64,000 nt of DNA from Candidatus Latescibacterota bacterium. GTDB taxonomy: Bacteria > Latescibacterota > UBA2968 > UBA8231. The position numbers and the translations under genes were made by a program. Under the pieces are notes generated by a model. That model was not told the DNA's origin. It did not search any database and saw nothing but the letters and a program-made list of their open reading frames with translations. The stretch lies in contig OZ242214.1 in NCBI GenBank assembly GCA_965206595.1, forward strand, positions 6,976,001 through 7,040,000, in the 5' to 3' direction. Positions 527-40,270 of this stretch are shown piece after piece. The number at the start of each line of letters is the position of its first letter. Positions within the stretch are counted from its first letter, which is position 1.

Positions 527-1504
527 TTACTCCATCTCCAACGAGGCTTTGATCCGCCCCCAGGAAACCGACTCGACCGCGCTGTCCCCTGGGTCGGTCG
601 AGCCCGCGGGCAGCAGCAGCCCGTCGAGAAAGGTATCCGCCCGATTAAAAGAAATGTTGTTAAAGAACGTGGTGGATGTCTCGTCTGGTTGCTGGACTTC
701 GACCGACCATCTTTGGGCATCAAATGCAGGCGGGTCATGGTCAAGCACTACCATCGCGAAACCGATCACCTGTCCCGCAGCAAAATCGCTGACCACGCTC
801 CCCTCGGGGCTTTGCCACGTTTCCCCCCAGCGGTCGAACGGGGTCACGTACAGCTCGATCACCCAGATGACCGGAGCTTCTCCGGCCGCGCCGCCGCCGC
901 TATCCCCATAGGGTGGCAAGGTCGTCCATGAAGCCTGTCCAATCTGGAATCTATACCTAAAATCATTCAGGGTCGGACCCCTGACAGTACGGGAAATAGC
1001 CTGGTAAAACGGAGCTTGCCCATGAATCTCGATAGCTTTTTCCAGTGGAGTTTCGGAATTACTCCCCTTTCCGCCGCTATGGTCTCCGTCGATCGCCAGC
1101 ATGATGCTGTCATACTGGGACATTCCATCACCAGAAGAACCGTAGTCGTGGGTGTTCTTGTACACGTCGTCGCTGGCCACGAAGCCGACATAGAGACGGG
1201 CCGGCTCGTCGTGCCAGGCCAGCCAGATGCGGAAGTCCAAGTCGGAAGGATCAGGTAGCAAAGGAGGCGAATGCGGCTCTTCTCCCGTGAAATCCAGTAG
1301 CGTCATAGTCGGCTCCCCGACCAGCTCGTACCACTCGTCTACCAACCCGTCGTCGAGTTGGATCTGTTCCAGCATTTCGTCACTGAGATAGGGAATCGGG
1401 AACACGCGGTCTCCGAGGTGGGCCTCTGCCCGGGCAGACAGCCCCAATCCGAGAAACAGAAAAAGGGCGGCGTGCCATTGCTTCCTGATACGAACACGGG
1501 TCAC
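527..1504 (-). CDS. Secreted CBM9/DOMON-like paralogue, type A (copy A3)
   Basis: Signal peptide ending ARAEA; motifs IQLDDG.VDEWY, DLDFRIWLAW, LY..FVASDD, DSIMLAIDGD, VIELYVTPFD, GQVIGFA.V.DHD; C-terminal SAVESVSWGRIKASLEME. Confidence 0.8.
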   Translation of the reverse strand: MTRVRIRKQWHAALFLFLGLGLSARAEAHLGDRVFPIPYLSDEMLEQIQLDDGLVDEWYELVGEPTMTLLDFTGEEPHSPPLLPDPSDLDFRIWLAWHDEPARLYVGFVASDDVYKNTHDYGSSGDGMSQYDSIMLAIDGDHSGGKGSNSETPLEKAIEIHGQAPFYQAISRTVRGPTLNDFRYRFQIGQASWTTLPPYGDSGGGAAGEAPVIWVIELYVTPFDRWGETWQSPEGSVVSDFAAGQVIGFAMVVLDHDPPAFDAQRWSVEVQQPDETSTTFFNNISFNRADTFLDGLLLPAGSTDPGDSAVESVSWGRIKASLEME

Positions 1505-1823
1505 GAGTTTTTCTCCTGTGTGAAGTTTGAACTGGCTTGCCTGCTTCGGGCAGGCATGGTGTGGTTAATGCAGGGCAGGCAGGCGCGGTGTCAATTCCTT
1601 CGTTCAGGTCTGGCTGCAACCCTTTGCTCACTTGCTCACCTATTGAGCGCTTGCGCGCGGGGCACCGCATCCGCCTGTCTGCCGGCACAGGCAGGCGGGC
1701 TGAACACCCTCCGTCGACGAGATCCCCGGATTCAAGCAGCCACTATCCCAGCATGGTCTATTTCCTGGACCGCTCCCTGCGCAGTGCGGCCAGGGCAGAA
1801 AGCCCGGCAGGAAAGGCGGAACA

Positions 1824-1897
1824 GCGCCCACACCCCTTAAAGAAACAGGGCATGGGCGCCTGAGCGACTGGAGCCTCCCCGCAGGAGGGGAGAGCTC
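1824..1897 (-). terminator. Two tandem stem-loops directly after the peptide stop codon (terminator, attenuator or mRNA stabiliser)
   Basis: Arms 1871-1880/1887-1897 and 1824-1835/1848-1859; both hairpins are conserved at 8101-8178. Confidence 0.6.
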
Positions 1898-2096
1898 AGT
1901 CGCAGTTGCAGCAGCCGTTGTAGGAGTACCCGTGCCCCAGTACGGAGCACAGGTAGGCGCACTCGCCGGCGGAGTTAACATTGGTGAAATGGTGCTGTCC
2001 GGTATGTGCGCTCAAGAAGACTGCACCGGCCGCGAGCATGACTCCCGCCGCAACGGCGAGGAAAGCCTTCCTGCTCCGATTCAATTGACGTTTCAT
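1896..2096 (-). CDS. 66-aa secreted Cys/His-rich peptide (P2)
   Basis: ATG at 2096 with GGAGG RBS; MKRQLNRSRKAFLAVAAGVMLAAGAVFLSA signal, then HTGQHHFTNVNSAGECAYLCSVLGHGYSYNGCCNCD; paralogue at 8177..8383. Confidence 0.85.
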   Translation of the reverse strand: MKRQLNRSRKAFLAVAAGVMLAAGAVFLSAHTGQHHFTNVNSAGECAYLCSVLGHGYSYNGCCNCD

Positions 2097-2130
2097 TTCT
2101 GCCTCCCTTTGGATTTTGGGGTCGCGCCTG

Positions 2131-2674
2131 TTCGCTACCCCGGTCACCCAAATACCATGCAATGGGCGTGCCTGTACCTGGCCGGCAGAGCTCATGAATG
2201 GCGTATGTAGTTACGTAACCTATTGTTTTACTGTGTCTTACTAATATCACTTTTTCTTTTTTCGTCGCCATCAGCTCGTCCTTGTCGCTACCGGCTTCTC
2301 GGTCTCGCCGTATTATATACGGTCTCGCCGTATTATATACGGTTTCGCCGACGGGCCGCCGCCCGCCCCTCCTCCTTCAAGCTCGGTTCTACTCGAAAGA
2401 AGCCGCGCCCGTCTCAGGCGCTGGATCGCTGGTTTTTTTCCGAAAATGGAAATTCTGCGAGGGAGTTCAGGTTTGACCCCCTTGCCGCGGACAGGTGCCG
2501 AGCAGGCCCTGGCCGAACAGGCGGGTGATCTCGTCGACTTCGTAGCGCGGAAGCGGCACCAGGCGGCCTCGCCTCCGCAGTTGCAGGCCGGCGGACCGGC
2601 CGACCGCACGGGCGACGACCTCGGCGCCGATCCGGAAGCCCGCCGGGAAATCGTGCAATGCGAGAAAGATCGGG
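2131..2674. repeat. Copy 2 of the direct repeat at 1..526, with an extra 20-bp tandem duplication at 2301-2340
   Basis: Direct comparison with 1..526; GGTCTCGCCGTATTATATAC occurs twice in tandem. Confidence 0.95.
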
Positions 2675-3661
2675 CTACTCCATCTCCAACGAGGCTTTGA
2701 TCCGCCCCCAGGAAACCGACTCGACCGCGCTGTCCCCTGGGCCGGCCGGATCGGCAGGCAGCAGCAGCCCGTCGAGAAAGGTATCCGCCCGATTAAAAGA
2801 AATGTTAAAGAACGTGGTGAACCAGGTGTATGTGTCGTCTGGTTGCTGGACTTCGGCCGACCATTCCTGGGGATCAAATGCAGGGGGGTCATGGTCGAGC
2901 ACTGCAATCGCGAAACCGATCACCTGGTCCGCGGCAAAACGGCTGACCACGCTCCCCTCCGGGCTTTGCCACGTTTCCCCCCAGCGGTCGAACGGGGTCA
3001 CGTACAGCTCGATCACCCAGATGACCGGAGCTTCTCCGGCCGCGCCGCCGCCGCTATCCCCATAGGGTGGCAAGGTCGCCCATGAAGCCTTTCCAATCTG
3101 GAATCTATACGAAGAATCATTCAGAGTCGGACCGCTGACAGTACGGGAAATAGCCTCGTAATCCGGAGCTTGCCCATAAAATTCGATAGCTTCTTCCCAT
3201 GGAGTGTTCTGGTCTCTCCCCCTTCCTCCGCTGTGGTCTCCGTCGATCGCCAACACGATGCTGTCATGCTCATTTCCGAAGGAAGGTGAACTACTGTAGT
3301 CGTGGGTGTTCTTGTACACGTCGTCGCTGGCCACGAAAGCGACGTAGAGACGGGCCGGCTCGTCGTGCCAGGCCAGCCAGATACGGAAGTCCAGGTCGGA
3401 AGGATCAGGCAGCAAAGGAGGCGAGTGCGGCATATGTCCCGTGAAATCCAGCAGGGTCATGGCCGGTTCGCCGATCAACTCGTACCACTCGTCTATGCGG
3501 CCGTCGTCGAGCCGGATCTGTTCCAGCATCTCGTCGGTAAGCTCGGCAATCGGGTACAGGCGATCGCCGAGGTGGGCCTCTGCTGGGACGGCGGATATTG
3601 CCAACCATAAAAGCAGGACCAAACTGCATTCAACTGCTTTTCGGATACGAACACGAGGCAT
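2675..3661 (-). CDS. Secreted CBM9/DOMON-like paralogue (A2: type A body with a B-type N-terminus)
   Basis: Same motif framework and C-terminal SAVESVSWGRIKASLEME. Confidence 0.8.
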   Translation of the reverse strand: MPRVRIRKAVECSLVLLLWLAISAVPAEAHLGDRLYPIAELTDEMLEQIRLDDGRIDEWYELIGEPAMTLLDFTGHMPHSPPLLPDPSDLDFRIWLAWHDEPARLYVAFVASDDVYKNTHDYSSSPSFGNEHDSIVLAIDGDHSGGRGRDQNTPWEEAIEFYGQAPDYEAISRTVSGPTLNDSSYRFQIGKASWATLPPYGDSGGGAAGEAPVIWVIELYVTPFDRWGETWQSPEGSVVSRFAADQVIGFAIAVLDHDPPAFDPQEWSAEVQQPDDTYTWFTTFFNISFNRADTFLDGLLLPADPAGPGDSAVESVSWGRIKASLEME

Positions 3662-3727
3662 GAGTCTTTCTCCATTCTGAGCGCTGTGAAAGCCCGAGGG
3701 CGATCACCGGAGAGGACGATACGCCGG
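3662..3727. repeat. 66-bp intergenic spacer repeated at 4703..4768 and 5753..5818
   Basis: gagtctttctccattctga(g/a)cgctgtgaaagcccgagggcgatcaccggagaggacgatacgccgg lies between consecutive paralogues. Confidence 0.95.
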
Positions 3728-4702
3728 TTACTCCATCTCCAGGGCGGCCTTGATTCGCCCCCAGGAAACCGACTCGACCGCGCTGTCTCCAGGCTGGGGC
3801 GAGCCCGCGGGCAGCAGGATGCCATCGACAAAGGTATCTCCTCTTACATCCCACAATTCTCCGAACACACTTCCATCAGACCGATGCATGGCTTCAGGTA
3901 CCCAACCCCTCCATCTCCCAGGTGGATCGCGGTCATGTACAATAATCGCAAAACCAATTACCTTCCCTGCGGCCAGGTCGCTGACCAGGTGATCCCCGGC
4001 GCTACTCCACCCTCCCCCCCAATGGTCGAAAGGGGTCACGTACAGTTCGATCACGCTGATGACGGGAGCTTCTCCGGCCACGCCTCCGCCCCCATCCCCA
4101 TAGGGAGGAAAAACCGTCCAAGGAAACTCCCCCGTCTGGTGTCTGACGCCCGGGTCATCCAGGGTCGGGCCGCCGACGGTGCGGGCAATTGCCTCGTACC
4201 ACTGAGTTTGCCCATGAGCTTCCGGCCAATCCGCTTCCAGTGAGCAACTCGAGGTACAACCCGCCCCCCCGCTGTGGTCTCCGTCGAATCCCATCATGAT
4301 ACTGTCATGATCCATCATATCATCTCTAGTAGATGATTCAAACCAATCCCCACTGTAGTCGTGGGTGTTTTTGTACAGGTCGTCGCCAGCCACGAAGGCC
4401 ACATAGATGCGAGCCGGGTCGTCGTGCCAGGCCAGCCAGATGCGGAAGTCCAGGTCGGACGGATCCGGTTCCAGGTTCTCCCACTCCTCTTTGAAATCCA
4501 GCAGGGTCATGGACGGCTCGCCGACCAACTCGTACCACTCGTCTATGCGCCCGTCGTCGAGCTGGATCTGTTCCAGCATCTCGTCTGTGAGCTCGGCAAT
4601 CGGGAACACGCGGTCGCCGACGTGGGCTTCGGCAGATATTGCCAACCATAAAAGCAGGACCAAACTGCATTCAACTGCTTTTCGGATACGAACACGAGGC
4701 AT
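3728..4702 (-). CDS. Secreted CBM9/DOMON-like paralogue, type B (B1)
   Basis: Framework motifs; GAGCTSSCS loop; C-terminal SAVESVSWGRIKAALEME. Confidence 0.8.
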   Translation of the reverse strand: MPRVRIRKAVECSLVLLLWLAISAEAHVGDRVFPIAELTDEMLEQIQLDDGRIDEWYELVGEPSMTLLDFKEEWENLEPDPSDLDFRIWLAWHDDPARIYVAFVAGDDLYKNTHDYSGDWFESSTRDDMMDHDSIMMGFDGDHSGGAGCTSSCSLEADWPEAHGQTQWYEAIARTVGGPTLDDPGVRHQTGEFPWTVFPPYGDGGGGVAGEAPVISVIELYVTPFDHWGGGWSSAGDHLVSDLAAGKVIGFAIIVHDRDPPGRWRGWVPEAMHRSDGSVFGELWDVRGDTFVDGILLPAGSPQPGDSAVESVSWGRIKAALEME

Positions 4703-4768
4703 GAGTCTTTCTCCATTCTGAGCGCTGTGAAAGCCCGAGGGCGATCACCGGAGAGGACGATACGCCGG

Positions 4769-5752
4769 TTACTCCATCTCCAGGGCGGCCTTGATTCGCC
4801 CCCAGGAAACCGACTCTACGGCGCTGTCTCCCGGCTCGGGGGGCAGCAGGAGGCCGTCGAGAAATGAATCTCCTCTTCTGTCCCACAATTCTCCAATCGC
4901 AATTCCATCAAGCCGCTGCATGGCTTCGGGTGCCCAACCCCTCCATCTCCCAGGTTGATCGCGGTCATGTACAATGATCGCAAAACCGATTACCTTCCAT
5001 GCGGCCAGGTCGCTGACCAGGTGATCCCCGGCGCTGTCCCATCCTCCCCCCCAATGGTCGAACGGGGTCACGTACAGCTCGATGACGCTGATGGTCGGGT
5101 TTTCTCCGGCCACGCCTCCGCCCCCATCCCCATAAGGAGGAAAAACCGTCCAAGGGAACTCCTCCGTCCGGTGTCTGACGCCCGGGTCATCCAGGGTCGG
5201 GCCGCCGACGGTACGCGCAATTGCCTCGTACCACTGAGTTTGCCCATGAGCTTCCGGCCAATCCTCCTGTGAGCAACTCGAGGTACAACCCGCCCCCCCG
5301 CTGTGGTCTCCGTCGAATCCCAGCATGATACTGTCATTATCCATCATATTATCTCTAGATGATCCGAACCAATCCCCCCCACTGTAGTCGTGGGTGTTCT
5401 TGTACACGTCGTCGCCGGCCACGAAGGCCACATAGATGCGAGCCGGCTCGTCGTGCCAGGCCAGCCAGACGCGGAAGTCCAGGTCGGACGGATCCGGTTC
5501 CAGGTCCTCCTCCCACTCCTCTTTGAAATCCAGCAGGGTCATGGACGGCTCGCCGACCAACTCGTACCACTCGTCTATGCGCCCGTCGTCGAGCCGGATC
5601 TGTTCCAGCATCTCGTCGCTGAGATAGGCAATCGGGAACACGCGGTCGCCGACGTGGGCCTCTGCCCGGGCAGACAGGCCGGCAGATATTGCCAACCATA
5701 GAAGCAGGACCAAACTGGCATTCAACTGCTTTCGGGTACGAGTACGGGTCAT
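4769..5752 (-). CDS. Secreted CBM9/DOMON-like paralogue, type B (B2)
   Basis: Close paralogue of 3728..4702 with the same tail. Confidence 0.8.
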   Translation of the reverse strand: MTRTRTRKQLNASLVLLLWLAISAGLSARAEAHVGDRVFPIAYLSDEMLEQIRLDDGRIDEWYELVGEPSMTLLDFKEEWEEDLEPDPSDLDFRVWLAWHDEPARIYVAFVAGDDVYKNTHDYSGGDWFGSSRDNMMDNDSIMLGFDGDHSGGAGCTSSCSQEDWPEAHGQTQWYEAIARTVGGPTLDDPGVRHRTEEFPWTVFPPYGDGGGGVAGENPTISVIELYVTPFDHWGGGWDSAGDHLVSDLAAWKVIGFAIIVHDRDQPGRWRGWAPEAMQRLDGIAIGELWDRRGDSFLDGLLLPPEPGDSAVESVSWGRIKAALEME

Positions 5753-5818
5753 GAGTCTTTCTCCATTCTGAACGCTGTGAAAGCCCGAGGGCGATCACCG
5801 GAGAGGACGATACGCCGG

Positions 5819-6778
5819 CTACTCCATCTCCAGGGAGGCCTTGATACGGCCCCAGGAAACCGACTCGACCGCGCTGTCTCCCGGGCCGGCCAAGTCGGCG
5901 GGCAGCAGCAGCCCATCGAGAAAGCCGTCTGCCCGGTGGTGAAAGAAAATTCGAAAAAGGTCCGTGGGGGTGTATTCTCCAGACTGCAGGGCTTCGGGTA
6001 CCCAATCCACCCAGTCGGAATCCGGCGACTCCCTATCCCGTACCGAAATCGCGAAGCCGATTACCTGTCCCGCTGTCAGATCGCTGACCGTGATCTCCCC
6101 GGGGCTGTGCCATCCCGCCCAGCGGTCGAACGGGGTGACGTACAGCTCGATGACGCTGATGGTCGGGTTTTCTCCGAACACCCCGCCACCGCCCTCCCCG
6201 TAGGGTGGAAAGACCGTCCAGGCGTACTCCCCCGTCTGGACTCTGGTGCCCCCGTCATCAAGGGTCGGGCCGATGGGAGTTCGGGCAATCGCCTCGTACA
6301 TCTGAGTCCGCCCGGCGATCTCCTCCCACTCTTCCAGCTGCGTACTGTTGCCAGCGCCGGCACCGCCGCTGTGATCTCCATCGATTACCAGCACAATACT
6401 GTCATTGTTGATGAAAAGTTCATCCGAGGCCCAACTGTGGGTGTTCTCGTACACGTCGTCGCTCGCGATGAAGGCGAGGTAGAATCGAGCCGGGTCGTCG
6501 TGCCAGGCCAGCCAGATGCGGAAGTCCAGATCGGACGGATCAGGTGTCACCTCTCCCCTCCGGTCGGCAAAATCCAGCACCGTCATGGTCGGTTCCCCGA
6601 CCAGCTCGGACCACTCGTCCACCAAGCCGTCCTTGAGATCGATCCTTTCCAGCATCTCGTCACTGAGATAGGGAATCGGGTACACGCGGTCTCCGAGGTG
6701 GGCCCCGGAGGACATCGCCAGTCCCAGGAGCAGAACGAGGGGGGCGTGCCATTGCTTCCTGATGGGAAAACCGATCAC
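5819..6778 (-). CDS. Secreted CBM9/DOMON-like paralogue, type C
   Basis: GTG at 6778 after a GGAG RBS gives a signal peptide that aligns with the paralogues; same tail. Confidence 0.8.
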   Translation of the reverse strand: MIGFPIRKQWHAPLVLLLGLAMSSGAHLGDRVYPIPYLSDEMLERIDLKDGLVDEWSELVGEPTMTVLDFADRRGEVTPDPSDLDFRIWLAWHDDPARFYLAFIASDDVYENTHSWASDELFINNDSIVLVIDGDHSGGAGAGNSTQLEEWEEIAGRTQMYEAIARTPIGPTLDDGGTRVQTGEYAWTVFPPYGEGGGGVFGENPTISVIELYVTPFDRWAGWHSPGEITVSDLTAGQVIGFAISVRDRESPDSDWVDWVPEALQSGEYTPTDLFRIFFHHRADGFLDGLLLPADLAGPGDSAVESVSWGRIKASLEME

Positions 6779-6851
6779 AAGTTTTCTCCCTTGTCTGACG
6801 CCCGGCGCGGTCGAGGCTCGAGAACCGCGCAAAGGATGGTCCGCATGCCGG

Positions 6852-7808
6852 CTACTCCATCTCCAGGGAAGCCTTGATCCGCCCCCAGGAAACCGACTCC
6901 ACCGCGCTGACACCCGGTCCGGCCGGATCGGCGGGCAGCAGCAGCCCGTCGAGAAAGGAATCCGCCCGATTGCGAATTATGTTCCAGAAGGTGGTGTCGG
7001 TCTCGTCTGACTGCTGGACTTCGACCGACCATCTTTTGACATCAATTGCAGGCGGGTCATGGTCAAGCACTACCATCGCGAAACCGATCACCTGTCCTGC
7101 GGCAAAATGGCTGACCACGCTCCCCTCGGGGCTTTCCCACGGTTCCCCCCAGCGGTCGAACGGCGTCACGTACAGCTCGATCACCCAGATGACCGGGGCT
7201 TCTCCGGCCACGCCGCCGCCGCCTTCCGCATAGGGTGGCAAGGTCGTCCATGAAGCCTGTCCAATCTGGACCCTATAGGGCACATCATTCAAGGTCGGAC
7301 CGCTGGCTGTGCGGGAAATAGCCTGGTAAGACGGAGCTTGCCCATGAATCTCGATAGCTTCTTCCAGTGGAGTGTTGGAGTCACCCCCCCTTCCTCCGCT
7401 ATGGTCTCCGTCGATTGCCAGCATGATGCTGTCATTTTCATGTAGGTATGGAGAACTACTGTAATCGTGGTTGTTCTTGTACACGTCGTCGCTGGCCACG
7501 AAGGCGACATAGAGGCGGGCCGGCTCGTCGTGCCAAGCCAGCCAGATGCGGAAGTCCAGATCCGCAGGATCGAGCGGCGATTGGTGGATTTCTTCGGTGA
7601 AGTCCAGCAGCGACAGGGTGGGCTCTCCGACCAACTCGTACCACTCGTCCACCAACCCGTCGTCGAGCTGGATTCCGGCCAGCATTTCGTCGCTGAGATA
7701 GGGAATCGGGTACACGCGGTCTCCGAGGTGGGCCCCGGAGGACATCGCCAGTCCCAGGAGCAGAACGAGAGCGGCGCGCCATGGCTTTTTGGTACAAACT
7801 CGGGTCAT
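6852..7808 (-). CDS. Secreted CBM9/DOMON-like paralogue, type A (A1)
   Basis: ATG at 7808 (MTRVCTKKPW...) after AGGAG; same framework and tail. Confidence 0.8.
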   Translation of the reverse strand: MTRVCTKKPWRAALVLLLGLAMSSGAHLGDRVYPIPYLSDEMLAGIQLDDGLVDEWYELVGEPTLSLLDFTEEIHQSPLDPADLDFRIWLAWHDEPARLYVAFVASDDVYKNNHDYSSSPYLHENDSIMLAIDGDHSGGRGGDSNTPLEEAIEIHGQAPSYQAISRTASGPTLNDVPYRVQIGQASWTTLPPYAEGGGGVAGEAPVIWVIELYVTPFDRWGEPWESPEGSVVSHFAAGQVIGFAMVVLDHDPPAIDVKRWSVEVQQSDETDTTFWNIIRNRADSFLDGLLLPADPAGPGVSAVESVSWGRIKASLEME

Positions 7809-8100
7809 GGGTCTTCTCCTGCGCGAAGTTTGGACCGGCTGCCTGCTTCGGGCAGGCATTGTGTGGATAAAGCCCGGATCAATGGAGCGCTTGCGGACGG
7901 CCGGGCCCGCAATCCGCCTTTCTGCCTCCTGCCTGTCTCCTCTCTGCCTCGGCACAGGCAGGCGGGGCTGAAGACTTCCATCGACGAGACTATCCTGATT
8001 CATGCGCCGTCGAAATGCCTAATGCCGTCTTTGGTTATTTCTTGGAGCGCTCCCTGCGAGTCGCAGGGGGACCCCAAGAACCCAGCAGGAAATGCGGAAA

Positions 8101-8178
8101 GGCGCCCACACCCTATAGAAACAGGGCGCGGGCGCCTGAGCGGACTCGAGCCTCCCCCTTGGCAGGAGGGGAGAGCTC
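8101..8178 (-). terminator. Two tandem stem-loops after the P1 stop codon
   Basis: Arms 8101-8114/8123-8136 and a second hairpin at 8148-8178; homologous to 1824-1897. Confidence 0.6.
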
Positions 8179-8383
8179 AGTTGCATTCGCAGCAGTTCCA
8201 AGAATCGTAGTAGGTGTACCCGTGCCCCAATTGAGAGCACATGTAGGCGCAATCATCTTCGGAGTCAACTCCGCTGAAATGGTGCGAACTGCCTGCGCTC
8301 AAGAAGGCCGCACCGGCCGCGAGCATGACCCCCGCCGCGATGGCGAGAAGGGCCTTTCTGCTCCGATTCAAATGACGTTTCAT
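8177..8383 (-). CDS. 68-aa secreted Cys/His-rich peptide (P1)
   Basis: GGAGG RBS; 30-aa signal, then GSSHHFSGVDSEDDCAYMCSQLGHGYTYYDSWNCCECN. Confidence 0.85.
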   Translation of the reverse strand: MKRHLNRSRKALLAIAAGVMLAAGAAFLSAGSSHHFSGVDSEDDCAYMCSQLGHGYTYYDSWNCCECN

Positions 8384-8624
8384 GGCTTCCTCCTGTGGTT
8401 TCGGGGCCGCGCCTTTCGCTAACCCCGTTCACCCAGAAGAGATGCAAACGGCGTGCCTGTACCTGGCCTGCGCCTCCACGAATGGGAACTGTAGTTCCGT
8501 AAGTCATTATTTTTCAGGTCTTTTACAAAATGTTTTTTATTTTTCGGGGGGCCGTCAGCTCGTTTTTGCCACGAACCGGCTTCCCGTGTCCGCCGTATTA
8601 AATACAAATTTTTGTATTTAATAC

Positions 8625-9952
8625 CACTACTGTCCGGTTGAGCGTTTTGAAGAATTGTGTAAATAACTAATCTACAATGAGTTGGGCGAATAAATGACCG
8701 TTTTCGATTTGAAATCGATCGTAGATTTGGGCCATTCAGCACTGCATTTAACCAGTGAGGGAATGGCCGATGCATACGGGACGAATGGTATTCTCACAGC
8801 TCATGGATTTCCTACCCAGGCACGAGTTCAACCGATGCGTGCGTCGGTATCATGGCAATTACAGGACACGGCACTTCAAGTGTCGCGATCAGTTTCTGTG
8901 CATGGCCTTTGCGCAACTGACCGGTCGGGAAAGCCTACGGGACATCGAGACCTGTTTACGCGCGATGCAGTCCAAGCTGTATCATGCCGGCATTCGATAC
9001 CCGGTTTCCCGGAGCACCCTGGCCGATGCCAACGAGCACCGGGACTGGCGCATCTATGCCGACTTCGCTCAGGTGCTCATTGGCCACGCCCGCAAGCTAT
9101 ACAGCCAAGACGACTTCGGAGTCCAACTCGAAGAGACCGCCTATGTCTTCGATTCCAGCACCATTGACTTGTGTCTTTCGCTGTTTCCGTGGGCCCGATT
9201 CCGTCAGCGCAAAGCCGCCATCAAGCTGCACACGTTGATGGATCTACGCGGCAATATCCCCTGTTTTATTCGCATTACAGAGGGGAAGACGCACGATGTC
9301 GGCCTGCTCGACGAATTGATTCTGGAACCGGGCGCCTTCTACATCATGGATCGCGGGTACATCGACTTTGCGCGGCTGTATACCTTCACTGAGCAGGCCG
9401 CTTTCTTTGTTATTCGAGCCAAACGCAATCTGGCCTATCGCCGGCGTGCCTCGCGTGGCGTCGACAAAACAACCGGCGTGCGTAGCGACCAGCGCATTGT
9501 CCTGTGCGGCCCCCAGACCAAAAAAGAATACCCGGATGCGCTTCGCCGCATAAGTTTTTTCGACGTCGAGTCGAAGAAGCGATTGGTCTTGCTGAGCAAC
9601 CAATTCCTGCTCCCTTCTTTTACCATCGCCCAATTGTATCGATGTCGCTGGCAGGTGGAGTTGTTCTTCAAGTGGATCAAGCAGCACCTGCGCATCAAGT
9701 CATTTTTCGGTACCTCCGAGAACGCGGTAAAGACTCAAATCTGGATCGCCATCAGCATGTACGTGATGGTGGCCATCATGAAGAAGCAGCTGCGGGTCGA
9801 GCGCAGTCTCTCCGAAATTCTGCAAATTCTCACCGTGTCACTTTTCGAGAAAGTTGATATTTTACAGGTACTTACAGAAATCCACCTCCAAAACCAATCG
9901 GCATACTCTTGTAACCAGTTGAATTTATTTGACTTATAACCGGACACTACTG
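8625..9952 (+). mobile_element. IS4-family insertion sequence
   Basis: Terminal IRs CACTACTGTCCGGTT / AACCGGACACTACTG (13/15 match); 9-bp target duplication ATTTAATAC at 8616-8624 and 9953-9961. Confidence 0.92.
8770..9939 (+). CDS. IS4-family transposase (DUF4372 + DDE)
   Basis: FDSSTIDL, MDRGYID and YRCRWQVELFFKWIKQ (YREK-type) motifs. Confidence 0.92.
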   Translation: MHTGRMVFSQLMDFLPRHEFNRCVRRYHGNYRTRHFKCRDQFLCMAFAQLTGRESLRDIETCLRAMQSKLYHAGIRYPVSRSTLADANEHRDWRIYADFAQVLIGHARKLYSQDDFGVQLEETAYVFDSSTIDLCLSLFPWARFRQRKAAIKLHTLMDLRGNIPCFIRITEGKTHDVGLLDELILEPGAFYIMDRGYIDFARLYTFTEQAAFFVIRAKRNLAYRRRASRGVDKTTGVRSDQRIVLCGPQTKKEYPDALRRISFFDVESKKRLVLLSNQFLLPSFTIAQLYRCRWQVELFFKWIKQHLRIKSFFGTSENAVKTQIWIAISMYVMVAIMKKQLRVERSLSEILQILTVSLFEKVDILQVLTEIHLQNQSAYSCNQLNLFDL

Positions 9953-9954
9953 AT

Positions 9955-11361
9955 TTAATACGAATCCTCCATGCGCAGCCGATGGGCCGCGGTCCCGCCC
10001 GGCTCCGCCTCTTCCCGCCTCAGCCGCCGGGAGATCCAGATCACCGACAGCAGCGACGAGGCGACCGCGGAAGCGACGAACGTCCACCAGACCGCGGTCA
10101 GTCCGAAGTCCCAGTAGCGGGTCAGGGCGTACGAGACCGGCACCGCGATCAGCACCACGCGAAGGGCGGTGATGACCATCGCCGGGACGCCGCTGCCGAG
10201 GCCCTGGAAGACCCTGCTGCTGATCAGCCCGGCCGCTATGAACGGGAAGGCGAGCACGAACACCCGCAGGTAGGAGGTCGCCACCCCGGCGATGCGCTCG
10301 TCGTCGGTGAAGGCTCCGGCCAGCTGCGGCGCGAACAGGTAGAAGCCGAGGCCGAAAACGACGGCGAGCACCTCCGCCCTGAGGATGGTGTAAACCAGGG
10401 TCTTCCTGACGAGGTCGATGCGCCCGGCCCCGGAGAACATCCCCGCCAGGGTCACCTGGCTGGTGGCGAGGGCGAACACCGGCATGAAGAAGATCGAGTC
10501 CATGCGCCCGGCGACGCCGAGGCCGGCCACCGCCTCGGAGCCGAACACCGACACAATGCGGTTGTAGAAGATGCCGCCGCCCGAGATCAGCAGCATCGAC
10601 GCCGAGGAGGGGAGCCCCACCTTGAGGATGAGGCCCGCGGTTGTCCGCGTCAGCCCCCATGGTCCGGAGCCCAGATTCAGGAAGGTGCCCCGGCGCACGA
10701 AGATGTAGAAAAGGAACACGAGCATCACCGCGAACTGACTGATGATCGTCGCCCAGGCGGCCCCGGCGATTCCCAGGCCGGCCGTGAAAATCAGCAGCGG
10801 ATCGAGGGCGACGTTGAGGAGGGTGCCCCCGGCCTGGAAGAGGACGGGGGTTCTGGTGTTGCCTTCCCCGGTCATGATCGAGCGGAAGCAGGTGTTGACC
10901 ACGACGAAGGCGAACCCCGGGGCGGCGACCTCGAAGTAGCGGACGGCGAGGGCGGCGACCTCGCCGGTGGCCCCCAGGGCCGTCATGATTCCCCCCTTGA
11001 AGAGGACGGCGACGGCGATGACGGCGGCGGCGAACAGGAGCCCCATTACGATGGTCTGGCGGGCGGCGTCCTCGGCCGCCTTCCTGTCGCCGGCCCCCAG
11101 CGAGCGCGCGATGGCGCTCGTCGCCCCGGCGCCGAGCCCGAAGACCATGCCGATGGCGAGAAAGACCACCGGCATGTTGAAGGTCAGGGCGGCCAGGGCG
11201 TCCCCCCCGAGCATGCCGACGAAGAACATGTCGGTCAGGTTGTAGAAGGTGTAGACCGCCATGCCCATCATCACCGGCAGCGACAGGGTCCAGACGGCGC
11301 GGCGCGGATTGGCGATGAACTCCCCTACCCGGCCGTGGCTCTTTTGCGGCGCTTCACTCAT
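9955..11361 (-). CDS. MATE family efflux transporter
   Basis: About 12 TM segments; TDMFFVGMLG, GEGNTRTP and LNVALDPLLIF motifs. Confidence 0.92.
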   Translation of the reverse strand: MSEAPQKSHGRVGEFIANPRRAVWTLSLPVMMGMAVYTFYNLTDMFFVGMLGGDALAALTFNMPVVFLAIGMVFGLGAGATSAIARSLGAGDRKAAEDAARQTIVMGLLFAAAVIAVAVLFKGGIMTALGATGEVAALAVRYFEVAAPGFAFVVVNTCFRSIMTGEGNTRTPVLFQAGGTLLNVALDPLLIFTAGLGIAGAAWATIISQFAVMLVFLFYIFVRRGTFLNLGSGPWGLTRTTAGLILKVGLPSSASMLLISGGGIFYNRIVSVFGSEAVAGLGVAGRMDSIFFMPVFALATSQVTLAGMFSGAGRIDLVRKTLVYTILRAEVLAVVFGLGFYLFAPQLAGAFTDDERIAGVATSYLRVFVLAFPFIAAGLISSRVFQGLGSGVPAMVITALRVVLIAVPVSYALTRYWDFGLTAVWWTFVASAVASSLLSVIWISRRLRREEAEPGGTAAHRLRMEDSY

Positions 11362-12419
11362 CGATTCGAAGTTACGCTATTGCCCCGAAGGGGGATCAAA
11401 TCGGGATTCCGGCCATGTGCGGCGATCGGTCGGCGGCTGCCGAGTTATTGGCTTCCTGGCCCTGTGCAGGATCTGCCGCCCAACCGGGGTGCGGTGAATC
11501 ACCGCATGGTCGCCCCCGAGAGCCTCGACGAAAACCGCCGGCGCGGCCTCCGTCGGGAGCCTGGAGGCCAAAACCATCCCAGGGGCGGGGCTACGTGACA
11601 TCCGCGATCAGCCTGGGTTAGTTTCCCGGCGTCCCGCGGACCAAACCGCCGCGGACATTCCGTGCTCCATCCGGGAAGCCGCCGCGGGCCCGCGAAAACA
11701 GGTAAACCGAGGCCGGCGCTCGCGGTCTCGCCCGCACTACTGTGGCCGCCGCCGTAGAAAGAACCGGCCGGAAGGAGAAGCAAGTGAACTACGACGCGAC
11801 GACGCGAACCTTCGATTGCGAACCGACTCTCACCGACTTCGAGGTGCTCGACTTCTGCATCAACGGGTACCTCATGCTGGAGGGAGTGGTGCCCGACGAC
11901 GTCAACCGGCGCGCCTGCAACTACCTCGACGGCAGGATCCCGGCGAACCCTTCCTGGATCCCCGACGGCCTCGACGAGGAGCAGCTCGAGCGTATCCGCA
12001 ACTCGCACGAGCCGAGCTCGATCTTTCTCGAGGACTGGTACCTCGAGCACGTGCTCCTCAACCCGGTGCTCTGCGGGGCCATGCGCTCCCTCCTGGGAAG
12101 GAACGTCGGCCTTCCGGTGCTGGCCAGCCTGCACAAGACCGAGGGGCCGAGGGAAGCCCAGGGATGGCACCAGGACGCCGACCGCATCTTCGGCCCGGAG
12201 CTCGAGTTCGTCGAGGTCTTCTACTTTCCGCAGGACACCCCGGCCGAGCTGGGGCCGACCGAGTTCGTCCCCGGCACCCACTTCAGGATGCAGGACCACC
12301 AGGGGGACCACGAGGGGGTGCTCGCCTCCGGGCCGGCCGGCACCATCGGCATCCACCACCAGAGCATCCTGCACCGCCGCGGCGAGTCGACGCCCGGGGT
12401 CCGGCGCATGCTCAAGTAC

Positions 12420-14279
12420 CCCTTGTTATTCATGGAATTTTAGTGGAGAGGGCTGTACTGGGTGCCTCCCATGCTTAGATTTCAGAGGGAAACACAAGGC
12501 AGTATCGCCCTTTGAACCCATCACACAGTAGGACACCCAATGGGTGAATTACCGTCACACACCGAGTCCGAGCAAGCCGGGCCGATTCAGCCGTCTTTCA
12601 ACCGCTCCATCCACATCGAAGCCCGCCCCACCCACCTTGGCAGCGACACCGGTGCGCTGATGTTGCGTCAACTGCTCGAACACAGCCGGGTTCTGGATTG
12701 GCTCGACGCCCACTTCGAGGATCTCCGTACCCAAGACCAGATCACGCACCCGCTGCCGGAGCTGCTGCGCACACAGATCGTGCTGCTGGCACAGGGCTGG
12801 ACCCACGCCGCCGACGCCGACGCGTTGCGCCAAGATCCGATCCTGCGTCTGGCGGTCAGCGATCGCAAAGGGCAGGCGCCGTTGCGCAGCGGCGACGAAG
12901 ACCGGCCGCAGGGACTGGCCAGTCAGCCGACGCTGTCGCGCCTGCTCGAGCAAGCCTCGACTGCCTATAACCGCGAGGTGTTGGAGGAAGCCGTCCTGCG
13001 CAGCGCCCGGTCTCGTTGCCGGCTGCTGGAAGGACGGATGAAATACGAGGAGTTGGCCGTCGACATGGATGCCCTGCCGATGCCGGCGCACGGGCACCAG
13101 GCGGGGGTCGAATACAACGGCTACTTCCACGCCTCGGGGTACCATCCCCTGCTCCTCGGCTCGGCGCAGACGGGCGATTTCTTCGGTGCCGTGCTGCGGC
13201 CGGGCAACGTGCACGCCCATGAGGGTGCCTCAGAGGCTCTCGGCAAGCGCTTGGACTGGATTCAGTCGCATCTGGCCCGGCGCCTCATCCTGCGCTTCGA
13301 CGCGGCCTCGGTGAGCGGGTCTTTCCTGAGTGAGCTGGAAGCGCGGGCCGACACCTCGTACGTGGCGCGCATCAAGAAGAATGCGCGCCTGGAGGAGCTG
13401 GCTCGTGCCTGGGTGGAAGGCTATCAGCAGGAGCTGGCGCAGCACCCGGAAGAGCTGCGGGAAGAGGGTTTTCGCTGTCGCGAGCTGCGTTATCAAGCCA
13501 GGTCCTGGGCGCAGCCCCGGCGGGTGGTGTTGGTCCTGGTCCCTTCCGAGACGGAAGAGCTGCCCATCGCCCGCCACTTCTTCCTGATCACCGACCAGAG
13601 TCCCCAGACGATGAGCGGCCGCGACCTGGTCGCCTTTTATCGTCAGCGCGGCCTTTTCGAGCGCATGCTCGGCGAGTTGAGCTCCACCCTCCAGCCTCAG
13701 CTCTCCTCTACCACCCGTCGCAAGCAACACTACCGGGGTCGAGAGCCGCGTCAGCGCACCCCGTCCCGGGATGCCTTCGCTGCCAACCAGGCGCTTCTGA
13801 CCTTGAACCTGCTGGCCTACAACCTGCTTCACCTGGGCCGCCAGGCCGCCGAACGCGCCGAGGCCCGACGCGGGCGGCCCCGCACATACGGACGCTCGAC
13901 GACGGCCCTGAGCCTGGACAGTTTTCGACGGCGCTACCTGCGCCTGCCGTCCCGCGTCACCTTGCATGGGCGCAGGGTGGGCGTCATCCTGACCCAAGGG
14001 ACGGCGGCTGCCTGGGATCGTCTGTGGAGATTTCTGGCCACGCTCAAACCGGTGGACGCGGCGATGGCGTAAGCGCAGGCCGGGTCGGTCGGGATGATGG
14101 GCTCGCAAAGGCAAGCGTCTTCGAGAAGGCGCGTACAATTTCAACAAGGTCGGTAGAGATAAGGAGACGGCTCTACCCAAAAAGCCGACTATAGAAGGGA
14201 CGCAAGCCTCTGAGGCTAAGCAAAGGGGTCTCGGAAGCGCCTATGTCCGCTTATGCGCGGGTTGAATGAATAACAAAGG
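12420..14279 (+). mobile_element. IS1380-family insertion sequence
   Basis: IRs CCCTTGTTATTCAT / ATGAATAACAAAGG; 5-bp target duplication AGTAC (12415-12419, 14280-14284). Confidence 0.92.
12540..14072 (+). CDS. IS1380-family transposase
   Basis: SDTGALML, LASQPTLSR, VDMD...HGHQ.G..YNGYF, LRPGN and FYRQRG..E motifs. Confidence 0.9.
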   Translation: MGELPSHTESEQAGPIQPSFNRSIHIEARPTHLGSDTGALMLRQLLEHSRVLDWLDAHFEDLRTQDQITHPLPELLRTQIVLLAQGWTHAADADALRQDPILRLAVSDRKGQAPLRSGDEDRPQGLASQPTLSRLLEQASTAYNREVLEEAVLRSARSRCRLLEGRMKYEELAVDMDALPMPAHGHQAGVEYNGYFHASGYHPLLLGSAQTGDFFGAVLRPGNVHAHEGASEALGKRLDWIQSHLARRLILRFDAASVSGSFLSELEARADTSYVARIKKNARLEELARAWVEGYQQELAQHPEELREEGFRCRELRYQARSWAQPRRVVLVLVPSETEELPIARHFFLITDQSPQTMSGRDLVAFYRQRGLFERMLGELSSTLQPQLSSTTRRKQHYRGREPRQRTPSRDAFAANQALLTLNLLAYNLLHLGRQAAERAEARRGRPRTYGRSTTALSLDSFRRRYLRLPSRVTLHGRRVGVILTQGTAAAWDRLWRFLATLKPVDAAMA

Positions 14280-14587: not shown

Positions 14588-15340
14588 TCAGCCAGCCGGC
14601 TCGACGTTGCGCTTCAGCAGTTGCTGCTCCAGCTCCGGCAAGCTCTCCCAGAACTCCCGGCGCACCGGGTTGTGGTGCCTCAGGCTGATCAGGCGGTACC
14701 AGGAGCGCTCGAAGCCGAGCACCGCAACCGGCCGCGGTGTCGCGGTGCGGTTCGGGGTGCCGCGGTGAAGGCAGCGGGGGTCGCGGATCAGCACGTCCCC
14801 GACCTTCATCGGCAGCTCCCGCCGTGCGAACTCGCCGCGGCCGATACCCTCCAGGGCCTGCGGCCGCGGCATGCGGTGGCTGCCGTCGGCGACCTCGAAA
14901 GGGCCGTTCTCGCGGTCGACGTCGACGAAGGAAAAGTTGACGGCGATGAGGGCCGGCGGCGTCACCAGGTCCGGCTCCTCCGGAAACAGGGAGGGCACGT
15001 CGCCGTGCCAGTCCTGAAAGACGCTGCCTTTCGCCGGGGTATCCGTGGCGTACTGAACCAGCTCGACGTCCTCGCCGAGGAGCTGCCGAACGACCCCGAT
15101 GATGTCCGGGTCCCCGTGGATCCGCGACTGGTAGAAGGGGGGCTCGAACGGCAGCTGTATGTAGTGGCGCATCGGGCCGCGGTTGGGATTGGCGCGGATC
15201 TCTTCGAGGTGGTCCTCCCAGACCGGGGCGAACGCCGCGGCGACCTCGGCCACCGCGTCTGCCGGGATCTGGTCCCGCAGGATGGTGTAGCCGGTGCGGC
15301 GCACCTCCGCGGCGCGCTCGGCCAGCTGTTCTTCGGTCAT
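14588..15340 (-). CDS. PhyH-family Fe(II)/2OG dioxygenase
   Basis: QDWHGD, ENGPFEV..GSH and LHRGTPN motifs; ATG at 15340. The longer upstream part of the ORF track is an off-frame overlap of the enolase-family gene. Confidence 0.85.
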   Translation of the reverse strand: MTEEQLAERAAEVRRTGYTILRDQIPADAVAEVAAAFAPVWEDHLEEIRANPNRGPMRHYIQLPFEPPFYQSRIHGDPDIIGVVRQLLGEDVELVQYATDTPAKGSVFQDWHGDVPSLFPEEPDLVTPPALIAVNFSFVDVDRENGPFEVADGSHRMPRPQALEGIGRGEFARRELPMKVGDVLIRDPRCLHRGTPNRTATPRPVAVLGFERSWYRLISLRHHNPVRREFWESLPELEQQLLKRNVEPAG

Positions 15341-15429
15341 CTCCGATATTCCCGGAAGTGGCCGGACCCGCGGTCCCCTTGGTCCCTGTCGCGATCCCCT
15401 GGTCCCCGGAGCTCCCGCCAGCAGCCCGG

Positions 15430-16590
15430 CTACCGCTCGGCGACCACCAGCGACTGGTACTTCTCCTCGTCCCATTCCGCCCCCCAGCCCGGCAGGTCCG
15501 TGGGAGCGAGGCAGCCGTCCTCGACCAGCGGCGCGTTCATCATCCCCCAGGTCTCGCCCTGTTTTCTCAGGGCGTCCGCGTCGAGGCTCATGTACTCGTA
15601 GTAGGTGGTGTTGTCGATGCAGCAGCCCAGGGTCGCGTGGATGTGGCCGTAGACCCCGCCGGTGGCGTTCATCTCGACGGTGGTGTCGTACATCTCGGCG
15701 AAGTGGGCCATCTTGAGCACGAGGGTGGTGCCGTGGCGGGCGTTGGCGCGCAGCAGGTCGGTTCCCCCCTGGATCAGCCACTGCGTCGAGATCCCTATGT
15801 CGTGCATCAGCATCTCCGTCCCCATCACCGGAACCGTCAGCTCGCGGCACAGCTCCTGGTACTGGTTGAGCTTCTGCTCGTGGAACGGCTCTTCCAGCCA
15901 GATGAAGTCCAGCTCCTCCATGACGTGGCCGACCTCGATCGCCTCGCGCAGGTCGTAGGAGCAGACCGGGTCGTTGAGCAGCTGGTAGTCCGGTCCGACG
16001 GCGTCGCGCACCTCGCGGAAGATCGGTATGTCGTACTTGCCCCCCTTGTAGGTGTGAAACTTGTAGGCGTCGATGCCGATCTTCCTGCCCGCCTCGATCT
16101 GGTGGAAGTATCCCTGCAGGTCCATGTCCCCGCCGGTGAGATAGCAGGGAATGCGCTCCCGCACCCTGCCGATGAGGGCGTGCACCGGCAACCCCGCGGC
16201 CCTGCCGGCGATGTCCCACAGGCAGTTGTCGAAGTCGCCGAACCAGCCCGGTTTCTGGTACACCCAGCGCGTCCCCTTGTGGAACATCTGGTAAAGGCGC
16301 TCGCGGTGCAGGGGGTCCTCCCCGAGGGCCATCGAGTTGACGATGCCGAGGTGGTAGCCGTCCATGGTCGACACCGGCACGCGGCCGGTGATCCCCTCGT
16401 CGGTGCGCACCTCGAGGAAGGTCTCGCGCGGCTTCGACGGCGGCGTCTCGACCGGAATCCGCTCCGGGTCGTGGCCGGCGCGGTACTGGATGCGCCGCAG
16501 TCCGGGGACCTGCACGAGCTGCGGCATGCGGCCGGGGCCGCCCCCTTCGGGCAGCTCCAGGGTGACCATCTTGATCTCGGTGATTTTCAT
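15430..16590 (-). CDS. Mandelate racemase/muconate lactonising enzyme family (enolase superfamily)
   Basis: DNCLWDIAG, YKFH, LLND, WLEEP and GTE motifs. Confidence 0.88.
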   Translation of the reverse strand: MKITEIKMVTLELPEGGGPGRMPQLVQVPGLRRIQYRAGHDPERIPVETPPSKPRETFLEVRTDEGITGRVPVSTMDGYHLGIVNSMALGEDPLHRERLYQMFHKGTRWVYQKPGWFGDFDNCLWDIAGRAAGLPVHALIGRVRERIPCYLTGGDMDLQGYFHQIEAGRKIGIDAYKFHTYKGGKYDIPIFREVRDAVGPDYQLLNDPVCSYDLREAIEVGHVMEELDFIWLEEPFHEQKLNQYQELCRELTVPVMGTEMLMHDIGISTQWLIQGGTDLLRANARHGTTLVLKMAHFAEMYDTTVEMNATGGVYGHIHATLGCCIDNTTYYEYMSLDADALRKQGETWGMMNAPLVEDGCLAPTDLPGWGAEWDEEKYQSLVVAER

Positions 16591-38010: not shown

Positions 38011-38864
38011 GAACCTATCTCAAAATTGAAATTGTTTAAGTAAAATCAAAATGGATGCAAGTTGGACGAAGCCAAGAAAATTCTCCGGATACAATTCCCA
38101 GCGAGTGATCACTCGACGCTGCCATTGAAGCCAAGCAAAGAATCTCTCAACCATCCAACGCCGCACATAACGCCGCAATCGCCGTCCGTCCTGAGTCTTT
38201 TTCTTGGTCCGATTCTGGCGATGCGGGGCGATCATCTCGATCCCGTCTTTCTTACGTTCTTCATCCAACGAATCGCTGTCGTACGCTTTGTCGCCGATCA
38301 AGTTGTCAGGTTGGTCTTCGATGAGGTAAAAGTCAAAGGTCAACTGAACCAGCGTCACTTCATGATGGTTCGCTGCATGCGTGCTCACCGACAAGGGAAG
38401 CCCATTGCCGTCCACGATCCCCATGACCCGCACCCCCTTACCTCGCTTGGTGTGGCCGATATCGGCACCTCCACCCTTGGCCGCCGAGAACATGCCGTCG
38501 ATGAAAGCCTCCGATTCGTCCAGGCCCCCTTGCTCGTGAAGGGTCTGGGCCAGGTCCATGAGAACTTCGCGTACCACCCCTTGACGACACCCGTTTTGAA
38601 AACGGCGATGAACGGTTTTGTAGTTCGGATAGCACGGCGGCAACATAGGCCATTGAGCCCCGGTGTTTAGAATCCAAAGGACGGCTTCAAAAACATCACG
38701 GGTGCAAACCGGTTTGCGACCCGGATGGCTCTTGGGACGAAGTTCTTCAGGAAAGTGATGGCGGATTCGTTGCCATTGCATGTCGGTCAGGTTGACCATA
38801 CACCAATGGTACATCACTGTCATTTCGAAAACAAGTTTAAGTTTGCCTGTTTTGAGATAGGTTC
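38011..38864 (-). mobile_element. IS5-family element, copy B
   Basis: Same IRs; intact transposase ORF ending at 38020. Confidence 0.9.
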
Positions 38865-38867
38865 TCA

Positions 38868-39714: not shown

Positions 39715-40018
39715 TTTTGGTTTCCTTTCAAAAAACAAGTGGATGGCGTTCTCAAAGAGCTTCATCCACTTGTTGATAACCGCCACGAGAACCTGACCTC
39801 CATTTCCGTGAAACCATGGGGCCTTTCGTTCGTCCTGGATTGAAAGATCGCAACAGACAGGCGGCTCCGGTATCACCCGATCGGGTGAATCTGCGGAAAA
39901 ATGGCCGGTTTTTTTCCGAAACCGGCGCCGCCGGCGCAGGACTGTTTGCGGAATGGGTGCTGAAACCGGGGGGGGGGGGGGGGGGGATATAAGGGAGTGA
40001 CTGCCGCGACGAGGGCAG

Positions 40019-40237: not shown

Positions 40238-40270
40238 CTGGTCCAGGGCCGCCCAGCCCGTCGCATCCTT

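Follow-up and report, generated by a model that had tools for sequence, protein, structure and literature searches.

We analysed a 64,000-bp stretch of the genome of a Candidatus Latescibacterota bacterium (contig OZ242214.1, positions 6,976,001 to 7,040,000; hereafter the window, in whose numbering positions are given) and identified on its minus strand, at 8177..8383, a gene of 68 codons plus a stop, which is referred to as P1. Judging from its translation and from the conservation of its family, P1 is a real gene, predicted to be translated into a mini-protein of about 38 residues that is exported. The evidence suggests that the strongest clue to its function is its fixed place ahead of sigma-54-controlled cassettes of CBM9-like and PD40 genes. 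We tentatively propose, with a probability of roughly 35%, that it encodes a Cys-stapled, metal- or thiol-active accessory mini-protein of the CBM9-like/PD40 cassette.

The 68-residue translation of the open reading frame (ORF) matched that of the original prediction exactly, and a Shine-Dalgarno (SD) sequence, AGGAGG, lies 5 nt ahead of the ATG (8389..8394, minus strand). Read by eye, the N-terminus carries five Lys/Arg residues, a 17-residue hydrophobic stretch and then LSA followed by G, and looks like a Sec-type signal peptide of 30 residues (8294..8383, minus strand) with a putative cleavage site between LSA and G. Cleavage there would release a mature mini-protein of 38 residues (8180..8293, minus strand) with the core cysteines C15, C19, C35 and C37, an extra cysteine, C34, and the histidines H4, H5 and H24. 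The features first listed for this peptide, namely CxxxC plus a C-terminal CCxC (five Cys, at 15, 19, 34, 35 and 37), an HHF motif, LGHGY and an acidic composition (six Asp/Glu and no Lys/Arg, net charge -6), were all read in the mature 38-mer. That the ORF codes for a peptide, as had also been claimed, is borne out by its relatives in the same genome, seven of them close and about 17 by hidden Markov model (HMM); since the paralogues share with it the reading frame, the SD site and the core motif, the ORF is more than a chance one.

The P1 ORF was found letter-identical in DNA contigs from the runs of three other studies, which over 7740-8500 had 0, 1 and 1 differences from the window, the sole differing site being 7867, outside the ORF. 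In one RNA-library run a single 223-nt contig, with 2 differences, covered 8356-8500 and thus spanned the leader and the first 28 nt of the ORF. No contig of that run covered the mature part, and DNA can occur in such libraries.

A search of P1 against its own genome (G000, a 7.05-Mb single contig, 92.9% complete) gave nine places, seven of which are clear, close paralogues with SD sites of their own; one paralogue, P2, lies within the window (1896..2096, minus strand). The profile of the seven paralogues retrieved 55 proteins among 5.8 billion, none of them named and none with a Pfam domain, and 23 matches in 1.84 billion cluster representatives, of which five are long proteins matched through the signal-peptide part only. 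An HMM built from a 52-row alignment detected 17 ORFs in this genome at E < 0.1. The family was present in 2 of 168 Latescibacterota species genomes, this one and one of its two congeners. With P1 as the query, zero Pfam families were found at E ≤ 0.01, NCBIfam gave one row far below its threshold (midcut_by_XrtH, E 0.046, 13.8 bits against a cut-off of 45), and in the ESM Atlas the top score was 0.83 and all clusters were unnamed. Searches of the literature on bacterial defensins, on Latescibacteria and sponges, on CBM9 and DOMON, and on AdDLP, supplements excluded, turned up no account of the peptide family.

Over the 52 members, C19, C35 and C37 are invariant and C15 is kept in 51, so that the Cys spacing, on whose conservation in homologues the original prediction had staked itself, holds (CxxxC...CxC in 51-52 of 52). 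H24 is kept in 51 members, H5 in 45 and H4 in 44, followed by G23 (49), A16 (47) and S20 (45). The family core can be written as G-x-C-A-[YS]-x-C-S-x-x-G-H ... C-x-C, after a (W)HH strand. The net charge is negative in 48 of the 52 (median -3), with a median of four His; this acidity argues against a cationic lytic peptide, in agreement with what had been proposed for P1.

The mature part, modelled by AlphaFold2 with the 52-row alignment, reached a predicted local distance difference test (pLDDT) score of 92.7, with a strand at 4-7, a helix at 12-22 and strands at 26-29 and 34-37. In this predicted beta-alpha-beta-beta order, CxxxC is placed on the helix, and the last strand of a three-stranded sheet holds CxC, an arrangement that in the model is the geometry of the cystine-stabilised helix (CSH), while C34 would face the opposite side of the strand. 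Foldseek gave zero matches to the P1 model at E ≤ 0.001, with about ten plant defensin entries among the matches listed. By an exhaustive structural aligner, the top match was a designed EHEE mini-protein (Z 4.7), followed by PAN/apple cores (4.4, root-mean-square deviation (rmsd) 1.3 A), plant defensins (3.5-4.1), and scorpion toxins and drosomycin (3.4-3.5). Realignment of the Foldseek candidates gave Z 5.3 for 7rjf, 3.3-4.5 for plant defensins and 4.0 for the APP copper-binding domain. As the aligner itself cautions that a Z under 8 may reflect just a common arrangement, the topology is defensin-like without this implying homology with defensins. A profile search of the family against the PDB gave one row, with E 1.2. 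The comparison with defensin folds, which had been proposed as a check, gave a confident alpha/beta mini-fold, with plant defensins at Z 3.3-4.5.

At all 17 HMM loci of this genome a CBM9-like ORF was found at most 1.5 kb downstream on the same strand (the script gave 16, the seventeenth coming from the listed match at 6968826-6969638), and the same arrangement was seen at 6/6 fetched loci of a sister species (G104), with synteny kept at its locus L009. Within the window, the first gene behind P1 encodes a CBM9/DOMON-like secreted protein (6852..7808) whose mature chain starts with His and which has the conserved ..SWGRIKASLEME tail. It is followed by a tandem array of CBM9-like genes (527..6913) at 5819..6913, 4769..5752, 3728..4702 and 2675..3661, then by P2, and then by the last CBM9-like gene at 527..1504, all on the minus strand. 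The array is closed by a PD40 propeller gene just before the window start (genome positions 6973953-6974795). A PD40 gene (PF07676, E 7e-31) closes many cassettes, this one included, and the order is peptide, one to five CBM9-like genes, PD40; two loci show the alternative order peptide, PD40, CBM9-like. The neighbours at the 17 peptide loci are CBM9-like genes, PD40 genes, a sigma-54 activator and insertion sequence (IS) elements. A reading of P1 as the precursor of a ribosomally synthesised and post-translationally modified peptide was rejected, as no conserved modifying enzyme (radical SAM, YcaO, LanM or similar) was found at these loci and the N-terminus is of Sec type.

The CBM9-like family consists of secreted proteins of 325 residues, with 87-89 matches in this genome and at least 500 unnamed database relatives; it was detected in 100/168 genomes of the phylum and in 75/75 genomes of the taxonomic family (f1). 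A model of the fold (pLDDT 89.2) matched in Foldseek the CBM9 structures 1i82 (E 7.9e-9) and 7nwn (1.4e-8) and the DOMON-type NxrC (2.3e-4), and no CBM9 model of Pfam matched at E ≤ 0.01. The CBM9-like and PD40 proteins are probably glycan-binding. A nearly invariant ..SWGRIKASL.. helix, in which W282 and K286 are invariant, forms the end of the CBM9-like proteins on a low-confidence linker and looks like a docking or address tag. Their mature chains nearly always begin with His, some members having Gln; an idea of a His-brace, as in lytic polysaccharide monooxygenases, was dropped on account of the Gln-starting members and the CBM9-like fold. In the mature PD40 chain H1 is invariant (10/10). 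A His directly after an AxA-type site tends to occur in all three secreted families, the CBM9-like proteins, PD40 (10/10) and the peptides (15/51); this His1 of the mature cassette proteins could serve metal binding or act as a sorting cue.

A decayed cassette was also observed at 38868..41024, with CBM9-like fragments at about 38871-39705 and 40698-40907 and a PD40 fragment at 40498-40674; an IS4/5 transposase (38020..38868) lies on one side of it and a Mutator-family transposase (41015..42274) on the other.

By pattern search, we found upstream of P1 the element GGCACG-N4-TTGCA (8443..8457, minus strand), starting 74 nt ahead of the ATG, which we take to match the sigma-54 -24/-12 consensus. 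There are 17 such sites in the 7.05 Mb, four of them upstream of the peptide genes P1, P2 and P5, and near-consensus copies precede two more paralogues, which share the leader; rpoN is present in the genome. A divergent activator that combines Reg_prop, Y_Y_Y and Sigma54_activat domains is encoded beside the paralogue P7. Reg_prop/Y_Y_Y sensors of Bacteroides hybrid two-component systems bind glycans, which makes a glycan-responsive cassette plausible. Further upstream of P1, about 140 nt beyond the -24 element, is a perfect 30-bp palindrome (8595..8624; GTATTAAATACAAA..TTTGTATTTAATAC), one of 3 such dyads in the genome and kept at the orthologous locus of the sister species; it is a candidate activator-binding site. 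The 5′ leader (8384..8445, minus strand) is structured (-31.1 kcal/mol, z -4.05), with the SD site paired in the minimum-energy fold and an inner hairpin common to five paralogue leaders, and this structure may have a regulatory role. Right behind the stop codon two strong hairpins were identified (8100..8178, minus strand; -57.1 kcal/mol, z -6.83), the second of which, with a 17-bp stem and then a U-rich tail, is terminator-like. A consensus promoter and terminator scan called neither the sigma-54 element nor the terminator.

From the dyad to the ATG, the 244-nt upstream region shares about 96% identity with the orthologue of the sister species. Between P1 and this orthologue the signal part has almost no change (synonymous proportion pS 0.043, nonsynonymous pN 0.045, ratio 1.03), and in the mature part pS is 0.34, a mosaic that fits either an exchange of mature segments among copies or a very fast change. 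P1 and its G104 orthologue are the exception among seven pairs, drawn from the paralogues and the sister orthologue, the other six having a signal-peptide pN/pS of 0.2-0.6; in the mature part the ratio is 0.5-1.3.

The original prediction had also stressed an odd number of cysteines. Five is indeed the usual count (38 of the 52 members, with four in 11, six in two and seven in one), but the fifth Cys has no fixed site. Depending on the member, the extra Cys is located in the His strand at the N-terminus (alignment indices 81-90), in a segment made up of the hairpin loop and the end of strand 2 (119-125), or immediately ahead of CxC (131); C34 of P1 is of the last type, directly ahead of CxC. 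On a tree built with the extra Cys masked, which is poorly resolved, its position or presence requires at least 26 parsimony changes. Even between near-identical sisters the site changes, P0024 having the extra Cys ahead of WHH and P0023 ahead of CxC, and the same switch separates P0026/P0027 from P0028. We infer from this that what is selected is the presence of one spare thiol, anywhere within one part of the surface.

According to the reading that we prefer, the four core Cys would staple the helix to the sheet, most likely by the disulfides C15-C35 and C19-C37 as in a cystine-stabilised helix, and the conserved His together with the lone Cys would form a Zn- or Cu-type metal site, or present a reactive thiol, on the exposed side. 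P1 would then be a metal-binding or thiol-active accessory that works outside the cytoplasm with the co-regulated CBM9-like and PD40 proteins, and would have no membrane-lytic antimicrobial role.

Several observations weigh against this proposal. On predicted strand 1 the extra Cys occurs on both faces (alignment indices 87-90), which points to a generic accessible thiol more than to a precise metal site, and H4 and H5, being adjacent in a predicted strand, could hardly both face one site. No match to DsbB, VKOR or Thioredoxin_4 was found in the 92.9%-complete genome, and only one, ambiguous, DSBA-family match was; disulfides can therefore not be assumed, although the two staples may still form in an oxidising habitat. 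Nor was there an excess of even Cys counts in exported-like proteins (81/171, against 1948/4188 in the rest, by a crude signal-peptide rule and gene calls), which together with the missing Dsb machinery leaves disulfide staples an assumption. The divergence of the peptide correlated weakly with that of the next CBM9-like gene (Pearson 0.32, Spearman 0.15; 105 non-independent pairs). Furthermore, CBM9-like proteins occur in 100 of 168 genomes and the peptide in 2, so that the peptide is dispensable for them. A prediction of the complex of PD40, CBM9-like protein and peptide (median score 0.30, mark 0.32) spoke neither for nor against binding.

By the same crude rule, Cys-free proteins made up 66/237 of the exported-like set and 497/4685 of the rest; as exported-like proteins are often Cys-free and show no even-Cys bias, the Cys-rich head peptides stand out. 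A claim of co-evolution of peptide and CBM9-like protein by mirror-tree was given up, the correlation being too weak for it.

Other explanations of the same data have to be weighed. Perhaps the peptide is a metal-free ligand or adaptor, a possible if doubtful reading, in which the lone Cys makes an intermolecular disulfide, either in a homodimer or with another exported protein, and the variable surface could suit a specific partner such as a CBM9-like protein, the PD40 propeller or a host molecule. Exactly one extra Cys in 38/52 members, free in position and on both faces of strand 1, would be expected of such a ligand, as would a fast mature part (pN/pS 0.5-1.3) behind a conserved signal peptide and the tight linkage to the cassettes, and the Cys-rich ligands SCR9 and LURE1.2, which have the same topology, are among the structural rows at Z 3.1. 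However, the CBM9-like proteins are mostly without Cys in their translations and the PD40 family has only one nearly invariant Cys, in a strand-like motif; the co-divergence of peptide and neighbour is weak, and three conserved His are left unexplained. We consider it rather unlikely that the core Cys instead hold a structural metal, as a Zn(Cys)4-type staple with maybe a second His/Cys site, the CSH likeness being formal only. The genome's lack of DsbB, VKOR and Thioredoxin_4, the exported-like proteins that show no even-Cys bias and are more often Cys-free, and the richness of the family in His are consistent with it. Yet disulfides canonically join CxxxC on a helix to CxC on a strand, Zn knuckles usually being CxxC, the peptide would be exported by Sec into an oxidising habitat, one DSBA-family gene is present, and the parity test rests on a crude signal-peptide rule that flagged just 237 proteins.

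A defensin-like effector harming competitors or eukaryotic cells, as AdDLP, xanthusin or actifensin, is distinctly unlikely. The CSH pattern of Cys and the alpha/beta fold, the plant defensins, scorpion toxins and drosomycin among the structural rows, and the multi-copy, fast-evolving character of the family would suit an effector, and in the available text of the sources bacterial cis-defensins are documented (PMC11561630) and the four-Cys AdDLP acts on Plasmodium (PMC5116183). Against these stand the 48/52 anionic members, the missing third disulfide, defensin Pfam matches in 0/52, structural Z scores of just 3.3-4.5 (the range of a common arrangement), the invariable linkage to CBM9-like/PD40 genes and the finding of no immunity gene or dedicated exporter conserved at the loci. 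It is very improbable that the ORF is untranslated and that its conservation reflects an RNA or a regulatory region. The leader and 3′ region are strongly structured and the only RNA-library contig covers the 5′ end without the mature part, but the frame, the SD site, the signal peptide and the invariant Cys and His are kept over 52 sequences that differ at most other codons, and Rfam gave no match beyond two chance microRNA rows well under threshold.

Upstream of P1, an IS4-family insertion (8630..9950, ends approximate, plus strand; transposase 8755..9939 with DUF4372 and DDE_Tnp_1) sits between the dyad and a MATE gene (9955..11361). The sister species lacks the element at its syntenic locus, where homology ends immediately upstream of the dyad. 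That orthologous locus retains the MATE gene, which was seen at none of this genome's other peptide loci; the same absence was observed for two ORFs near it that resemble PhyH-type Fe(II)/2-oxoglutarate dioxygenases (11742..12443, plus strand, and 14588..16219, minus strand). Elsewhere in the window, large secreted proteins with type IX C-terminal domains (CHU_C, FlgD_ig), one of them also with a discoidin-like domain, are encoded at 26467..31419, 31046..33802 and 33682..35664 (minus strand), from which the organism probably has a type IX secretion system. A GmrSD-type restriction endonuclease gene lies at 46593..48302 (minus strand), and a large protein with WD40 and Big_1 repeats at 61268..64000 (minus strand) runs past the window end.

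P1 is not the only kind of peptide found ahead of CBM9-like genes. In another genus, a CBM9-like array has upstream of it an exported Cys-rich peptide of a different kind (8 Cys, with both CxxxC and a CxC at the C-terminus), and an IS element has become inserted between the two. Its relatives, matched mostly through a conserved leader motif, were detected in 30/76 genomes of the taxonomic family. They are exported, have 6-10 Cys and carry the motif ..EF..S.SG.V..[RK]QG.. ahead of the hydrophobic stretch. At 4/10 fetched loci of this wider family a CBM9-like gene is directly downstream, two of them in the P1 genome, where the wider family has loci outside the window at L062:1438-1722(-), L066:1459-1794(-), L065, L070 and L072. 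A profile comparison of the P1-family alignment with one of the wider-family peptides aligned H..CxYxC..CxC (E 8.6e-4, with a probability of just 24%). The P1 family may therefore belong, as one branch, to a larger set of head peptides.

A bolder proposal, which we regard as a long shot, is that the lectin-like CBM9 proteins have as their cognate ligands the hypervariable Cys-stapled peptides encoded ahead of them, the pair serving kin or host recognition in a sponge symbiont under glycan-sensing sigma-54 control. If so, the lone Cys or the His site would lock the complex, the wider head-peptide family (30/76 genomes) would make it a general two-part recognition module of the lineage, and plant peptide/receptor pairs of the SCR/SRK or LURE type would be the counterpart of the peptide and CBM9-like pair. 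The P1 family would add a fourth phylum, Latescibacterota, to the bacterial helix-stapled (CSH/CS-alpha-beta-like) mini-proteins, and in an unusual form, anionic, with three conserved His and one Cys of variable position, in many copies and tied to sigma-54-driven lectin-like cassettes. If it is a metal- or partner-binding accessory and not an antibiotic, the defensin scaffold would have non-defensive roles in bacteria, which bears on the debate about a bacterial origin of cis-defensins. The family is also a possible handle on a very large uncharacterised family of secreted proteins (about 87 copies here; 100/168 genomes).

The P1 family is outside the defensins proper. Of what had been described as a defensin/CSH-like peptide, the CxxxC...CxC core and the helix/strand geometry stand, the CSH motif being present in the sequence pattern and, with CxxxC on the helix and CxC on the strand, in the model, but other marks of defensins are missing. 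Only four Cys are conserved over the 52 members, so that cis-defensins' third conserved disulfide, which ties the N-terminal part to the sheet, is not there, and no gamma-core GXC was found in the beta-hairpin; the only conserved G-x-C precedes the helix as its N-cap, with Gly at the position of D13 in 47/52 members and Asp in P1 itself. Instead of the cationic charge of defensins, 48/52 members are net negative (P1, -6), and 0/52 matched the defensin, gamma-thionin or scorpion-toxin Pfam families at E ≤ 10.

Among known structures, the best geometric fits to the P1 model were PAN/apple cores (HGF N domain, MIC4, SML-2) and designed EHEE mini-proteins (7rjf, Z 5.3, rmsd 1.4 A; 5jg9, Z 4.7-4.8; 7mob, Z 4.4, rmsd 1.3 A), in each of which the helix is tied to the central strand. 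However, PAN modules are larger domains of eukaryotic proteins, EHEE proteins are designed and without biology, and neither is related to P1 in sequence. Plant defensins/gamma-thionins, SCR and LURE share the beta-alpha-beta-beta order (Z 3.3-4.5, rmsd 2.6-3.4 A over 37-38 residues), but differ from P1 in having four disulfides, a cationic charge and a eukaryotic origin. The HMA metallochaperones (CopZ/MerP/HAH1) share the beta-alpha-beta-beta start and a G-x-C at the helix start in weak rows (Z about 3), and differ in their beta-alpha-beta-beta-alpha-beta fold, with CxxC and without a C-terminal CxC.

The bacterial cis-defensins of classes I-V (xanthusin-1 etc.; PMC11561630) and the actifensins (PMC6989792) are, as far as the available text of these papers goes, like P1 in being Sec-exported, small and Cys-rich, with a CSH motif and an alpha/beta fold. 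According to the same portion of PMC11561630, each of them contains three or four disulfides, with a GXC gamma-core placed between strands, whereas P1 has two potential disulfides, and none of them was among the structural rows listed for the P1 model. The available part of that survey counts 74 peptides in three phyla, Proteobacteria (including myxobacteria), Acidobacteria and Actinobacteria (PMC11561630), which agrees with the statement in the original prediction that such peptides are rare in bacteria.

By description, P1 comes closest to the four-Cys CSH peptides of myxobacteria, such as AdDLP of Anaeromyxobacter dehalogenans and StDLP (Zhu 2007; Gao 2009), and the four-Cys, CSH-only pattern in a secreted bacterial peptide is also seen in the P1 sequence. 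In the available text of PMC5116183 and PMC11561630, AdDLP and StDLP are, like P1, secreted and bacterial, with exactly four conserved Cys as CxxxC...CxC and without the gamma-core hairpin motif; AdDLP is given there as active on Plasmodium (PMC5116183), and classical antibacterial activity is unreported for it in these portions and would be unexpected for the P1 family. AdDLP was compared by description; in the profile search of the 1.84 billion representatives no sequence relationship to it came up, the family-wide matches being the P1 family only, bar the signal-peptide matches. Unlike AdDLP and StDLP, the P1 family belongs to Latescibacterota and is anionic and His-rich, usually with a fifth Cys at a variable site, and its last Cys lies 0-3 residues from the C-terminus, compared with 9 in AdDLP as far as its source text shows. 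Unlike AdDLP, too, it is present in about 17 copies per genome, always at the head of CBM9-like/PD40 cassettes.

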